In this document: positions 38,341 through 47,788 of the stretch, one piece after another
Position numbering within the stretch: the stretch's first letter is position 1
Layout: each line of letters opens with the position of its first letter
Source: Escherichia coli
GTDB lineage: Bacteria; Pseudomonadota; Gammaproteobacteria; Enterobacterales; Enterobacteriaceae
Length of the DNA: 64,000 nucleotides
Reading direction: 5' to 3' (one strand)
Assembly (NCBI RefSeq): GCF_024502345.1
Contig: NZ_JALDNN010000001.1
The notes under the pieces: generated by a model
Databases searched by the model: none
What the model was told of the DNA's origin: nothing
The model's input: only the letters and a program-made list of their open reading frames with translations
Program-made: the position numbers and the translations under genes

Positions 38341-38369
38341 TGATAAATTAGGGGCCCGCTTGGAAAACG
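38341..38369 (+). repeat. outer 29 bp of a Tn3-family 38-bp inverted repeat, separated from its inner part by IS110 copy 2
   Basis: GGGGCCCGCTTGGAAAACGGAAAATATCC matches 27 of 29 positions of the right-hand repeat at 47751..47788. Confidence 0.7.
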
Positions 38370-39741
38370 GAAAATATCCTACTATAAGGGCTTCCCCGAA
38401 CAGTCAACGCCGGTTTTTAATTTCTGTCTGTTCATCAATGAAAGGCAAGGGATAAGACTGCGCTACTATAAACGGTCATGCTGAATCGCTAGTGATTCGG
38501 ACCCTGATGAAAGACGCTCGTGAGATCCTCCTTCGTTAATCGGATAGTGATATCCAGTAGGATATGCAGATACTTCTCACGGGGGTCTAACCCTTTACCA
38601 TCAACAATTTACAGTTCAGTTACTACTCAGTTAAATTTTTCATGTTGTTGAATACAGTCTGAAGTCATCGCCGTAATGTAATGATGCCCAGCACAACCTC
38701 GCATTCTTGGCGGCGATTGCAACGACAGCACGCCAGTATCCCCGCCTACCAATCAACGAGCAGACCCAACGGCTAAACGGGTCCGTTCTATTCTCTGCCC
38801 CTACCATTACAGAACGGGCTCCCTGGACCAGTAGGGTTCGCAGATAGGCATCACCCGCTTTTGTTATCCTGCCAAGCTTTGATTTTCCGCCACTACTGTA
38901 TTGTGATGGCGTTAGCCCCAACCAGGCTGCCAGTTGGCGCCCGTTCTTAAAATCATGGGCATTGCCAATACTGGCGACCAGCGCACTCGCTGTGGTGGGC
39001 CCAACACCTTTCAGTTCCATTAACTGCTGGCTGCGATGATCTGTTTTGGCCACACGAGATAATACCCTGTCATATTCGGCGATTTTCTCTTCAATATTAG
39101 TGACATGTGTCAATAGATCATCAATGCACAGCCTAACCTGTACTGGCAGAGTTTCCTTCTGGTCAGAAACAACATGACGCAGAGCATCAGTGCTTTGTGG
39201 GGCAATAACCCCGAATTCAGATATCAGGCCCCGAAGACGGTTATACGTTGCTGTTCTTTCCTGGATAAATCCCTGTCTTGTCCGATGTAAGCATTGCATT
39301 GCCTGCTGGCTTTCGTCTTTGACTGGTACAAAGCGCATATGCGGCCGCTGCACTGCCTCACAAATAGCTATTGCATCAGCTGCATCATTTTTCCCGGTCT
39401 TACCCGCCATGCGATAGGGTGAGACAAATTTCGGAGCCATCAACCGGACATCATGGCCATACTGCCTGAATAATCTTGCCCAATAGTGGGCACCCGAGCA
39501 GGCTTCCATTCCAATGACACAGGGAGGTAAACCTGCGATGAGTTCAGAAAGTGCTGCACGCGACACCTTGGGTTTAACCAGAACAGCTTTACCATTTTGG
39601 TCAATGCAGTGAACAGCAAACACATTTTTAGCAAGATCGATACCGACAGTGGTGATGGTCATAACGAATCCCTCTGGGTCAATGTTTATCCTATGATTGC
39701 ACGAAAGTTAATCAGGCGCATATCTAGGGGAAGTCCCTTCC
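38370..39741 (-). mobile_element. IS110-family element, copy 2, inserted in a Tn3-family inverted repeat; boundaries approximate
   Basis: Transposase ORF 38640..39662; by eye about 85-90 percent identical to copy 1; preceded by the outer repeat and followed by the inner repeat (attcgttaag). Confidence 0.75.
38640..39662 (-). CDS. IS110-family DEDD transposase
   Basis: 340-aa ORF MTITTVGIDLAKNVFAVHCIDQNGKAV... Confidence 0.8.
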   Translation of the reverse strand: MTITTVGIDLAKNVFAVHCIDQNGKAVLVKPKVSRAALSELIAGLPPCVIGMEACSGAHYWARLFRQYGHDVRLMAPKFVSPYRMAGKTGKNDAADAIAICEAVQRPHMRFVPVKDESQQAMQCLHRTRQGFIQERTATYNRLRGLISEFGVIAPQSTDALRHVVSDQKETLPVQVRLCIDDLLTHVTNIEEKIAEYDRVLSRVAKTDHRSQQLMELKGVGPTTASALVASIGNAHDFKNGRQLAAWLGLTPSQYSSGGKSKLGRITKAGDAYLRTLLVQGARSVMVGAENRTDPFSRWVCSLIGRRGYWRAVVAIAAKNARLCWASLHYGDDFRLYSTT

Positions 39742-39746
39742 ATTCG

Positions 39747-44770: not shown

Positions 44771-47755
44771 ATGCCACGGCGACAGATACTGAGCAGCGAA
44801 GAGCAGGAACGCTTACTGGTTATACCAGATGATGAAATTATTCTGACCCGAATGTGTTTTCTGAACGAACCGGATATTGCGCTCATTAATAAGCACCGAA
44901 GGCCAGCGAATCGCCTGGGCTTTGCTGTATTACTCTGTTATCTGCGTGGACCTGGATTTATTCCGGACAAAAGCAGTGCTCCTCACAATGGCGTTGTATC
45001 CAGGGTTGCTTCCCGACTGAAACTTCAGCCTGATTTATGGCCGGAATATGCATCCAGAGAGCAAACCCGCTGGGAACATCTGACCGAACTTTATCGCTAC
45101 CTGGAACTATCCCCGTTCAGCCGGTCAATGCAAAAAGACTGTATCCGTCATCTGCACCCCTATGCCATGCGAACTGACAAAGGATTTATGCTGGCGGAAG
45201 AAATGCTCAGCTGGCTACATAACAATAATGTTATTTTCCCTTCTGTTGAAGTGATCGAACGGACGCTTGCCGAAGTCGTCACGCTCGCTAACAGATCGGT
45301 ATTTTCGACACTTACCGCGCAACTGGAAAAGCAGCATAAATCAGCACTCGACAGCCTGCTCATATCAGAGGGTGAACAACCTTCCCGTCTGGCATGGCTG
45401 CTACAGCCTCCGGGTAAAATAAACGGTAAAAATGTGCTGCAACATATCGACCGGCTTAATTCCATCGCTGCGCTGGGGTTGCCTGATGGTATTGCACTTT
45501 CCGTTCACCAGAACAGGTTGCTTAAACTGGCGCGTGAGGGCCGGAAAATGAGCAGCAGGGACCTGGCAAAATTCACCGATGTCAGACGTTACGCTACGCT
45601 GGTTTGTATAATAACAGAGGCCAGGGCCACCCTGACTGACGAAGTGATTGATCTGCACGAGCGTATCCTGGGTAGTCTGTTCAGCAGGGCAAAACGCACG
45701 CAGGCCGAACGGCTCCAGCAAACGGGAAAGCTTATTCAGAGCAAGCTGAAGCAGTACGTTACCGTCGGGCAGGCGTTACTTAACGCCAGAGAATCCGGGG
45801 AAGATCCCTGGACTGCAATAGAAGATGTCCTTCCCTGGCAGGAATTCATCAACAGCGTGGAAGAAACGCGGTTTCTTTCCCGTAAGGGCAATTTCGACGC
45901 GCTTCATCTGATCACCGAAAAATACAGTACGTTGCGTAAATATGCCCCGCGTATGCTGTCAGCATTGCAGTTCATGGCGACACCTGCGGCGCAGGCGCTC
46001 AGCGATGCGCTGGACACCATAACGGAAATGTACCGTAAACAACTTCGTAAAGTGCCGCCATCAGCGCCAACAGGGTTTATCCCTGAAAGCTGGCGAAAAC
46101 TGGTGCTCACGCCTTCAGGCATCGACCGCAAGTACTACGAGTTTTGCGTACTGAATGAACTCAAGGGTGCATTACGTTCCGGTGATATCTGGGTAAAAGG
46201 ATCGCGCCGCTACAAAAATTTTGATGATTATCTCATCCCGACTGCTGAGTTTGAGAAATCCCGACATAATGACCAGTTACAGTTGGCCGTTCAGACCGAT
46301 AGCCAGGCATACCTTCAGGCCCGTATGACTCTTCTTGCATCTCGGCTGGAAGAAGTTAACGCGATGGCGCTTGCCGGTGATTTGCCCGATGTAGATATCT
46401 CAGATAAAGGCGTAAAAATCACTCCACTGGAGAACAGCGTTCCTTCAGGTGTTTCGCCCTTTGCAGATTTGGTCTATGGCATGCTTCCCCATCCGAAAAT
46501 TACGGAGATACTGGAAGAAGTTGATAGCTGGACGGGATTTACGCGTCACTTCGCGCACCTCAAAAATAATAACGTCAGACCAAAAGACGGAAGACTGTTG
46601 CTGACCACCATTCTGGCTGACGGCATCAACCTTGGGCTGACAAAAATGGCGGAATCCTGCCCTGGGGCCACAAGATCGTCACTCGAAGGTATTCAGACAT
46701 GGTACATCAGGGATGAAACTTATTCAGCGGCACTGGCCGAGCTGGTCAACGCACAGAAAGAGCGGCCTCTGGCCGCATTCTGGGGCGACGGGACAACATC
46801 GTCGTCAGACGGGCAGAACTTTCGGGTAGGCAGTCACGGACGTTATGCCGGTCAGGTCAATCTTAAATATGGTCAGGAGCCGGGCGTGCAGATTTATACG
46901 CATATCTCAGACCAATACAGCCCGTTCTACGCCAAAGTGATCAGCCGGGTGCGCGACTCAACCCACGTGCTTGATGGCCTGCTGTACCATGAAAGCGATC
47001 TGGAAATTACCGAGCATTACACCGATACCGCAGGCTTCACTGAACATGTTTTCGCCCTGATGCACCTGCTGGGATTCGCTTTTGCGCCAAGGATCCGTGA
47101 TCTTCATGACAAGCGGCTGTTTATTCATGGAAAGGCCGAGCGCTATCCGGGGCTTCAGTCTGTCATATCAACAACCTGCCTGAATATCAAAGACATTGAG
47201 TCGCACTGGGATGAGGTATTGCGCCTGGCAACCTCGATTAAGCAGGGGACAGTCACCGCATCACTGATGATGAAAAAGTTAGCCAGTTACCCAAAACAGA
47301 ATGGACTTGCCAAAGCGCTGAGAGAGATTGGCCGCATCGAACGGACACTATTTATGCTGGACTGGTTCCGTGATCCCGGTCTGCGCCGACGCGTGCAGGC
47401 GGGGCTGAATAAGGGTGAGGCCCGTAATGCCCTTGCGCGAGCGGTCTTTTTGCACCGTCTGGGTGAAATAAGGGATCGTGGGCTGGAGAATCAGAGTTAT
47501 CGCGCCAGCGGGCTGACATTACTGACAGCAGCGATCACGTTGTGGAACACGGTATATATAGAAAGAGCTATTGAGTCACTAAAACGAAAGGGTATCCCGA
47601 TAAATGAGCAACTGGTCTCTCATCTTTCTCCCCTGGGCTGGGAACATATCAATCTGAGTGGAGATTACGTCTGGCGTAATAATCTTAAGCTGGGATCCGG
47701 AAAATACCGCTCATTACGTACAGTCGATACCGCTTTGTACAAAAAACAGTCTTAG
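44771..47755 (+). CDS. tnpA: Tn3-family DDE transposase
   Basis: 994-aa ORF; stop codon lies inside the terminal repeat. Confidence 0.85.
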   Translation: MPRRQILSSEEQERLLVIPDDEIILTRMCFLNEPDIALINKHRRPANRLGFAVLLCYLRGPGFIPDKSSAPHNGVVSRVASRLKLQPDLWPEYASREQTRWEHLTELYRYLELSPFSRSMQKDCIRHLHPYAMRTDKGFMLAEEMLSWLHNNNVIFPSVEVIERTLAEVVTLANRSVFSTLTAQLEKQHKSALDSLLISEGEQPSRLAWLLQPPGKINGKNVLQHIDRLNSIAALGLPDGIALSVHQNRLLKLAREGRKMSSRDLAKFTDVRRYATLVCIITEARATLTDEVIDLHERILGSLFSRAKRTQAERLQQTGKLIQSKLKQYVTVGQALLNARESGEDPWTAIEDVLPWQEFINSVEETRFLSRKGNFDALHLITEKYSTLRKYAPRMLSALQFMATPAAQALSDALDTITEMYRKQLRKVPPSAPTGFIPESWRKLVLTPSGIDRKYYEFCVLNELKGALRSGDIWVKGSRRYKNFDDYLIPTAEFEKSRHNDQLQLAVQTDSQAYLQARMTLLASRLEEVNAMALAGDLPDVDISDKGVKITPLENSVPSGVSPFADLVYGMLPHPKITEILEEVDSWTGFTRHFAHLKNNNVRPKDGRLLLTTILADGINLGLTKMAESCPGATRSSLEGIQTWYIRDETYSAALAELVNAQKERPLAAFWGDGTTSSSDGQNFRVGSHGRYAGQVNLKYGQEPGVQIYTHISDQYSPFYAKVISRVRDSTHVLDGLLYHESDLEITEHYTDTAGFTEHVFALMHLLGFAFAPRIRDLHDKRLFIHGKAERYPGLQSVISTTCLNIKDIESHWDEVLRLATSIKQGTVTASLMMKKLASYPKQNGLAKALREIGRIERTLFMLDWFRDPGLRRRVQAGLNKGEARNALARAVFLHRLGEIRDRGLENQSYRASGLTLLTAAITLWNTVYIERAIESLKRKGIPINEQLVSHLSPLGWEHINLSGDYVWRNNLKLGSGKYRSLRTVDTALYKKQS

Positions 47756-47788
47756 CGTGGGATAATTTCCGTTTTCCAAGCGGACCCC
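47751..47788 (-). repeat. 38-bp terminal inverted repeat of the Tn3-family element
   Basis: Reverse complement reads GGGGTCCGCTTGGAAAACGGAAATTATCCCACGCTAAG. Confidence 0.85.

Follow-up and report, generated by a model that had tools for sequence, protein, structure and literature searches.

A probable hybrid Tn2501-group transposon of Escherichia coli with a captured foreign left end and a SaxA-like cargo operon

The window analyzed here, a stretch of 64,000 nucleotides from an Escherichia coli contig (NZ_JALDNN010000001.1 of assembly GCF_024502345.1), contains at 38351-47788 a class II (Tn3-family) transposon, which is very probably best explained as a hybrid of the Tn2501/Tn2502/Tn2503 group that captured a foreign left end and carries a SaxA-like cargo operon in its interior; a replicative mode of transposition would follow from its family membership. 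In such an element the transposase TnpA would act on two 38-bp terminal repeats and the resolvase TnpR would resolve cointegrates at res, with the cargo placed between tnpR and the far repeat, like bla in Tn3. The far repeat would represent the tnpA-proximal end of a second transposon of a Tn2502-like lineage, spared by a deletion associated with an IS3-family insertion sequence (IS), and the original repeat adjoining tnpR, as seen in cargo-free relatives, would have been lost. Recombination, both at or close to res site I and inside tnpA, would since have swapped the tnpA module with those of relatives. The order of these events is one that we infer.

Boundaries and native organization of the unit

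An inverted-repeat search of positions 34000-52000 recovered two pairs of arms, one of 38 bp (38351-38388 and 47751-47788, with 33 of 38 positions matching, 87%) and one of 323 nucleotides (39745-40067 and 47435-47757, 81%), and no other inverted pair of at least 25 nucleotides. The former are the near-identical 38-bp inverted repeats by which an initial annotation of the window had bracketed the region, and they hold up with the qualification that the last 6 bp of the left 38-mer belong to an inserted IS. Comparison with uninterrupted copies in two of the retrieved comparison loci (numbered here with the prefix L), i.e., plasmid pAA-ST131 (NZ_KY706108, L001) and L010, allows reconstruction of the left inverted repeat (IRL). 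Its outer 32 bp lie at 38351-38382 on the plus strand (GGGGCCCGCTTGGAAAACGGAAAATATCCTAC), agree at every base with positions 1-32 of the uninterrupted 38-bp repeat in L001, L004, L008 and L010 and pair with the right inverted repeat (IRR); its inner 6 bp, GTTAAG, are displaced by the IS to 39746-39751 (plus strand) and are joined to the outer part in L001 and L010. The arm at 38351-38388 is thus chimeric, its last six bases (TATAAG) being the end of the inserted IS. The intact IRL, as read in the IS-free copies, is GGGGCCCGCTTGGAAAACGGAAAATATCCTACGTTAAG. The IRR (47751-47788, minus strand; GGGGTCCGCTTGGAAAACGGAAATTATCCCACGCTAAG read inward) is intact, overlaps the stop codon of the 994-residue tnpA open reading frame (ORF), and is identical to the reconstructed IRL at 34 of 38 positions.

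Two ISs interrupt the window copy. The first, a 1,363-bp IS5708-like element of the IS1111 subgroup of the IS110 family (38383-39745, minus strand; NF033542, 356.8 bits), splits the IRL after base 32, and the second, a 1,336-bp IS2-group element of the IS3 family (41897-43232, plus strand; matching the NCBIfam IS2 TnpA and TnpB models), lies inside the regulator gene of the cargo and is absent from L001. Plasmid megablast and pairwise blast identify the unit without both ISs on pAA-ST131 (NZ_KY706108.1, 70093-76815) at 99.9% identity. Hence, the unit of about 9.4 kb proposed in the initial annotation is real as a bracketed stretch, but the native unit measures 6,723 bp once the two ISs are removed. 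In this form its order is IRL, a 323-bp fragment of a second transposase gene (tnpA'), an IS3 remnant, a saxA-like hydrolase gene, a GlxA-type regulator gene, a SnoaL-like gene, tnpR, res, tnpA and IRR. Further E. coli replicons, plasmids as well as chromosomes, contain the unit at about 99.9% identity, and across hosts it is 99.6-99.9% conserved.

Mobility of the whole unit

The repeat tips were scanned across all retrieved loci for flanking 5-bp duplications. Perfect, AT-rich duplications bracket the whole unit at four independent and unrelated sites: ATATT on pAA-ST131, where the unit lies between the aat and aar/aap/aggR genes; TCATT in a chromosomal island near a tRNA-Leu gene (L004), a site shared by L007, in which both repeats contain IS4321; TAAAT within the rep gene of a plasmid (L014); and AAATA on pCP131-IncHI1 (L015), around an internally deleted copy. 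Further, a search of the interior of the unit for a second IRL-like repeat yielded a best ungapped match of 23 of 38, equal to the maximum of 23 from shuffled sequence, and gapped scores within the null range; no terminal repeat adjoins tnpR on the cargo side, as had been noted at the outset. Given the duplications around the whole unit and the absence of an interior repeat, the cargo belongs to the interior of a unit that transposed as a whole, consistent with the earlier placement of the cargo inside the bounded unit. The target duplications show that the whole unit, cargo included, has been mobile elsewhere. A degenerate repeat candidate at 43949-43988 (AGGCTCC...GTTAAG), 48 bp beyond tnpR, obtained gapped scores of 6-8 against shuffled maxima of 12-16, is unconserved in relatives and was set aside as a chance match.

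The window copy itself presents a different picture. The 5-bp duplication sought outside its repeats, with the IS110-family copies conceptually removed, did not materialize: AATTA stands on the left and AGGGA on the right. Three further chromosomes of E. coli (L003, L009 and L010) have these flanks as well, which identifies the arrangement as an inherited island. The split IRL, the broken regulator gene and the missing target duplication together mark the window copy as decayed, and it is most likely immobile, with its cargo most likely misregulated. It is improbable that the 9.4-kb form with its ISs is still mobile by virtue of the IS5708-like end, which at the outer junction rebuilds a near-complete 38-mer that TnpA might use. 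The resulting pseudo-repeat (38351-38388) does match the intact IRL at 36 of 38 positions, i.e., it differs at only 2, and tnpA, tnpR, res and IRR are all intact in this copy. Against this, apart from the absent duplication, the exact IS-containing arrangement was not seen at a second site, L003 being the same site, and IS1111-type insertions in such repeats are generally held to be inactivating.

Less probable still is the proposition that only the core formed by tnpR and tnpA, some 3.8 kb, is mobile, with the cargo and tnpA' as mere neighbors. A cargo-free relative of 3,815 bp is indeed known (L075), in which the left repeat lies 8 bp from the tnpR stop codon, and pSFO157 plasmids carry an element of the same size named Tn2501 (PMC7175801); such a cargo-free element is presumed to be the ancestral form. 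The lack of a target duplication around the window copy would likewise sit well with a mobile core. However, blastn homology between the window and the L075 element starts only at 44052, 14 bp inside the 3' end of tnpR, the tnpR-side repeat of that relative is missing in the window with no other repeat beyond tnpR to replace it, and the four independent duplications lie outside IRL and IRR.

Origin of the second, partial tnpA

The fragment tnpA' (39747-40067, minus strand) comprises 106 codons and the stop codon from the 3' end of another transposase gene of the Tn3 family, diverged from the resident one, and is recognized as a 323-nucleotide inverted match to 47435-47757. It is labeled 'Tn3 family transposase, incomplete' by the Prokaryotic Genome Annotation Pipeline (PGAP) in L003, L004 and L009. 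The identity of about 90% to the resident tnpA given in the initial annotation applies to the protein (95 of 106 residues, 90%) and not to the nucleotides (80.8%), of which 62 of 323 differ, mostly at synonymous positions. Outside the unit, the best match to tnpA' among the plasmid megablast matches listed is the Tn2502 region of Yersinia enterocolitica pYV, at 94%; within PLSDB, tnpA' occurs at 99% identity or above in 35 plasmids. The 19% divergence of tnpA' from the resident gene, set against a unit that is 99.6-99.9% conserved, and its greater closeness to Tn2502 indicate that tnpA' derives from a different, related transposon. Of the two origins initially considered, the hybrid between two related transposons is thus favored by the 19% divergence, the 94% match to Tn2502 and the mosaic breakpoints described below. 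Least probable of all is a derivation of tnpA' and the left repeat from the resident element itself, through one-ended transposition, which is documented in Tn3-family elements, or duplication-inversion of its own tnpA end, since the inverted presence of the tnpA 3' end at both termini is outweighed by a divergence that, with the unit 99.9% conserved between hosts, must be older than its assembly, by the greater proximity of tnpA' to Tn2502 than to the resident gene, and by the 4 of 38 positions at which IRL and IRR differ.

The DNA at the junction (40068-40236, plus strand), as read from the sequence, contains an IS3-family transposase gene of which the 3' end is left (approximately 40085-40171) and truncates tnpA'. 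This remnant, labeled 'integrase, incomplete' by PGAP in L008 and L009, has its right end toward the cargo, with tnpA' fused to its interior, and the junction falls outside the segment homologous to L017, a locus that has the cargo genes in a non-transposon setting. The fusion suggests a deletion that spared only the foreign repeat and 323 bp of the adjoining gene.

Transposition genes, res and exchange with relatives

The intact tnpA (44771-47755, plus strand) encodes a Tn3-family DDE transposase of 994 residues that matches NF033527 (NCBIfam) with 1209.9 bits, against a cut-off of 500 bits, over positions 2-954 of the 954-position model. The divergently oriented tnpR (44036-44611, minus strand) encodes a serine-recombinase resolvase of 191 residues with the N-terminal sequence YCRVSTLEQ, recovered by the serine recombinase families of NCBIfam. 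Relative to L001, the window copy has 2 mismatches in tnpA plus IRR and none in tnpR and res. The intergenic region between the two genes (44612-44770, 159 bp) contains conserved dyads and four of the seven matches to TGTMCGAA in the 64-kb window, all within 44636-44707. In an alignment of five relatives it shows 86% mean column identity with invariant half-sites, including those of the dyad TGTACGAAACCGACCGGTTTCGGTCA at 44700-44725, the one nearest to tnpA and a putative crossover site. In Tn3 and gamma-delta, site I is the res site closest to tnpA. The intergenic region is predicted to work as res. The full-length transposase model, the serine recombinase and the conserved dyads bear out the initial description of a Tn3-family unit with tnpR, res and an intact tnpA. 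Indeed, the unit displays the features typical of the family, namely a Tn3 transposase of about 1,000 residues, repeats of about 38 bp of the form GGGG...TAAG (the IRL being physically split here) and a resolvase gene with a predicted res; the 5-bp target duplication is lacking in the window copy and present around the unit at the four other sites.

Within the family, the repeats, the 994-residue TnpA, the divergent tnpR and tnpA and the overall backbone agree with the Tn2501 group, for which Tn2501 and Tn2503 were taken from published descriptions. For Tn2503 and Tn2502, a TnpA of 994 residues, a tnpR that runs divergently from tnpA, and three dyads in res are described (PMC3316555). The repeat of a Tn2502-like arsenic transposon on pYV03 of Y. 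enterocolitica matches both IRL and IRR at 36 of 38 positions. Beyond these features the unit shares with the group the location of the dyads between the two genes and of the cargo beyond tnpR. It is set apart by a nucleotide identity of only 80-84%, by its SaxA-like operon in place of arsHRBC or no cargo, and by a cargo-side terminus that appears to have been captured, namely a repeat from the end of another tnpA together with 323 bp of that gene. At the level of modules, the core is 83% identical to relatives and tnpR 80%, with the tnpR genes of the Tn2502-like, chrA-carrying and SulP-carrying relatives in the range of 80-84%. Those relatives that carry different cargo (SulP/USP in L005 and L006; chrA/ars in L012; ars in L011) diverge from the unit exactly at the end of tnpR.

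Alignment with relatives also shows mosaic breakpoints. Compared with the SulP/USP transposon in L005, the unit is about 15% diverged through tnpR and res up to 44698, after which only 5 mismatches are encountered in 3,090 bp to the IRR; the interval containing this breakpoint (44699-44763) includes the dyad at 44700-44725. In L014, the left module is identical and tnpA carries 125 mismatches from 45559 onward. The latter breakpoint, being inside tnpA, indicates that ordinary homologous recombination also shuffles Tn2501-group elements.

In more general terms, the unit has the arrangement of Tn3 and Tn1000, i.e., tnpA, res, tnpR, passenger and repeat, with divergent genes, 38-bp GGGG...TAAG repeats and 5-bp AT-rich duplications, and differs from them in subgroup, in cargo and in its heterologous left end. 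In Tn1721 of the Tn21 subgroup, an additional 38-bp repeat with a truncated tnpA' delimits the cargo region, and the basic element Tn1722 keeps both repeats. The architecture seen here is comparable in that the cargo of a Tn3-family element is bounded by an extra 38-bp repeat and a truncated tnpA'. Unlike the tnpA' of Tn1721, which is a direct, near-identical copy, the present one is inverted, 19% diverged and foreign, and the tnpR-side repeat of the core is gone. The individual mechanisms, including cargo beyond tnpR, a truncated tnpA' with an extra repeat, res-mediated hybrids and IS1111-type targeting of repeats, are already part of known Tn3-family biology, and the unit leaves the understanding of how these elements work unchanged. 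It offers a case, documented in sequence, of how Tn3-family elements may gain passenger genes, with the tnpR-side repeat lost, a related repeat captured past neighboring genes, and modules swapped at res. No published name or description of this transposon was found in the literature searched, TnCentral not being among the sources compared.

The cargo operon

All three cargo genes run in the direction of tnpR, with intervals of 19 and 70 bp between successive genes. The first (43439-43843, minus strand) encodes a SnoaL-like 'ester cyclase' family protein of 134 residues, matched by the TIGR02096 and SnoaL families of NCBIfam under their cut-offs; it finds SnoL and AclR in PDB at about 1e-5, and its homologues in L017 and L021 match Pfam SnoaL. 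The second encodes a GlxA/FtrA-type AraC regulator with an N-terminal DJ-1/PfpI domain and is disrupted in the window copy, its 5' part lying at 43233-43419 (minus strand; from alignment to L001 8136-8323) and its 3' part at 41115-41896 (minus strand). In L001 the gene is intact, and its 317-residue product, named 'GlxA family transcriptional regulator' by PGAP, matches FtrA (NF006902) with 309.8 bits, under the cut-off of 425. The third (40268-41044, minus strand) encodes a SaxA-like hydrolase of 258 residues with the metallo-beta-lactamase (MBL) fold, recovered by Pfam Lactamase_B_2. It aligns over its full length (residues 1-256) with the chain of Pectobacterium SaxA in its crystal structure, which PDB lists as a 'putative isothiocyanate hydrolase' (6BRM_A; E=6.7e-79, 123 of 257 positions identical), retains the HxHxDH motif and shares with SaxA the conserved motifs THTHxDHWD, QHGS, GDTxW and SHMESxNH.

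Enzymes of the SaxA family convert isothiocyanates to an amine and carbonyl sulfide, an activity preserved across five phylogenetic clusters, and saxA is often found on mobile elements (PMC7036374). The cargo is most likely an isothiocyanate-detoxification module, a function that we infer from these resemblances. Plasmid-borne saxA genes are known from Pectobacterium (6BRM) and from plasmids of the Delia radicum gut (cited in PMC7036374), and have in common with the present gene the full-length MBL-fold homology, the metal-binding motifs and the location on mobile DNA. They differ from it in the identity of 48% and in that the gene here, with a predicted activity, forms part of a SnoaL-GlxA-SaxA trio within a Tn3-family transposon of E. 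coli.

The trio also exists without the transposon, in the same order and spacing. In L017, a contig with non-E. coli flanks, it adjoins flagellar genes, with 90% nucleotide identity over 2,346 bp, the homologous segment corresponding to window 40237-43934 minus the IS. In Salmonella (L021) its neighbors are genes for an isochorismatase, an OsmC protein and a second DJ-1/AraC regulator. This conserved synteny supports the three-gene operon proposed in the initial annotation, which had missed the disruption of the regulator gene by an IS in the window copy. Among 5,426 complete E. coli genomes, the trio was found in 76, at 54 chromosomal and 24 plasmid places. In a Shigella flexneri plasmid (NZ_CP058854.1, L016), the SaxA-like operon is adjoined by a different full-length Tn3-family tnpA with ArsR and permease neighbors, which from the equivalent of window position 40121 stands in place of IRL and tnpA'; hence, the operon is associated with more than one Tn3-family element.

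A wider proposition, that a Tn3-family transposon spreads a dedicated plant-isothiocyanate detoxification operon among gut E. coli, is possible, if on the doubtful side. Were it true, the products of crucifer glucosinolates would exert a diet-linked selection on commensal and pathogenic E. coli through an element without an antibiotic-resistance gene, and the carriers would include an enteroaggregative pAA virulence plasmid with the unit between the aat and aar/aap/aggR genes. A probable isothiocyanate-detoxification operon on an E. coli transposon could also bear on how diet influences the gut microbiota and on the use of isothiocyanates in food preservation. In terms of annotation, the unit explains why genes labeled 'partial Tn3 transposase / MBL hydrolase / GlxA / ester cyclase' recur as a block in many plasmids and chromosomes of E. 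coli.

Observations at odds with the proposed history

Several points count against the explanation of the unit as a hybrid Tn2501-group transposon with a captured left end and SaxA-like cargo. First, the missing target duplication leaves the arrival of the window copy by its own transposition unsupported, and the copy on pSE11-2 (L008) is likewise without one. Second, the searches did not yield the exact donor of tnpA' and IRL: in the 60 sampled rows of the plasmid megablast, none of the matches of at least 99% fell on a tnpA annotated as full-length, and a homologous-protein search with the 109-residue tnpA' peptide returned only short fragments of fewer than 200 residues and no full-length donor. 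Third, the breakpoint at the res dyad could reflect ordinary homologous recombination, given the L014 breakpoint inside tnpA. Additionally, on the side of the cargo, both the regulator and the SnoaL-like protein score under NCBIfam cut-offs, the hydrolase is only 48% identical to the characterized SaxA, and the source organism was not found, a scan of contigs with an 88%-identical SaxA homologue giving nothing above about 56% full-length identity.

Insertion sequences in the unit and its repeats

The IS5708-like element was delimited from the IS-free allele in L010, with its position ambiguous by one C. Its transposase ORF occupies 38640-39662 (minus strand), and the matching family, NF033542, is that of the 'IS110 family RNA-guided transposase'; PGAP assigns the element to the IS5708 family in L003. 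Its placement in the IS1111 subgroup agrees with its IS110-family transposase, its precise insertion without duplication, and the presence in the neighboring repeat IRa of a related element with identical position and orientation (see below). Across the repeat tips of L002, L003, L007, L009, L013, L014 and L015, IS5075/IS4321 sit after repeat position 22 and the IS5708-like elements after position 32, and the left repeat of L003 contains both types, nested. IS4321 and IS5075 reportedly target Tn21-type terminal repeats. The IS5708-like copies in the window resemble IS4321, IS5075 and IS5708 in occupying a fixed position and orientation inside a 38-bp repeat with no target duplication, and are distinctive in that two copies, 82% alike, reside in two tandem repeats of Tn2501-group elements 1,435 bp apart. 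A search of positions 34000-50000, including both copies, against Rfam at gathering thresholds matched no family.

A direct duplication of 15 bp, ACACCGATAAGTCAT, stands on either side of the IS2-like element, at 41882-41896 and 43233-43247; the uninterrupted allele has this sequence once. Identical copies exist elsewhere in E. coli; among the loci compared, two other chromosomal ones (L076 and L078) have 16-bp duplications, CATAGCAAACGTACAT and GGCATGTAGCTCGTTG, and one plasmid copy has none. The usual target duplication of the IS3 family is 3-5 bp, and the 15-16 bp seen here are far above this range.

Genomic surroundings

On each side of the transposon lies the inward-facing remnant of an end of another Tn3-family element, two different elements in all, which may explain the absent target duplication; a search for an empty site that would account for it found none, the right flank being the last 86 bp of another such element. 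On the left, a second Tn3-family end (36916-38350) lies 34 bp from the IRL. Its repeat, IRa, the tip of which is degenerate, reads AGGCTCCGTTTGGGAAACGGAAAATATTGTAC continued by GTTAAG beyond an interruption. The interrupting sequence is a further IS5708-like element (36948-38310), only about 82% identical to that in the IRL, and the IS-free arrangement is seen in L010. To the right of the IRR, positions 47789-47874 (86 bp) comprise the terminal 48 bp of a third tnpA of the Tn3 family and a Tn1000-like repeat, GGGGTTTGAGGGCCAATGGGACGGTAACGTACGCTAAG (47837-47874, facing left), beyond which a truncated IS3-family integrase gene follows.

Farther away, a gene for an autotransporter of the ECSE_1600 family is split (16868-24694), with its N-terminal 634 residues encoded at 17862-19793 (minus strand) and model residues 632-1629 at 21215-24694 (plus strand). 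IS5-family (ISKpn26-like) copies at 16868-17836 (plus strand) and 20303-21271 (minus strand) are found around it, and the arrangement looks like an IS-mediated inversion. A third ISKpn26-like ORF occupies 57394-58362, and the segment 58420-64000 matches the pqqL, yddB and gadB region of the E. coli chromosome at 98%. The mosaic of plasmid-type genes and ISs in the window appears to be an IS-rich island in an E. coli chromosome.

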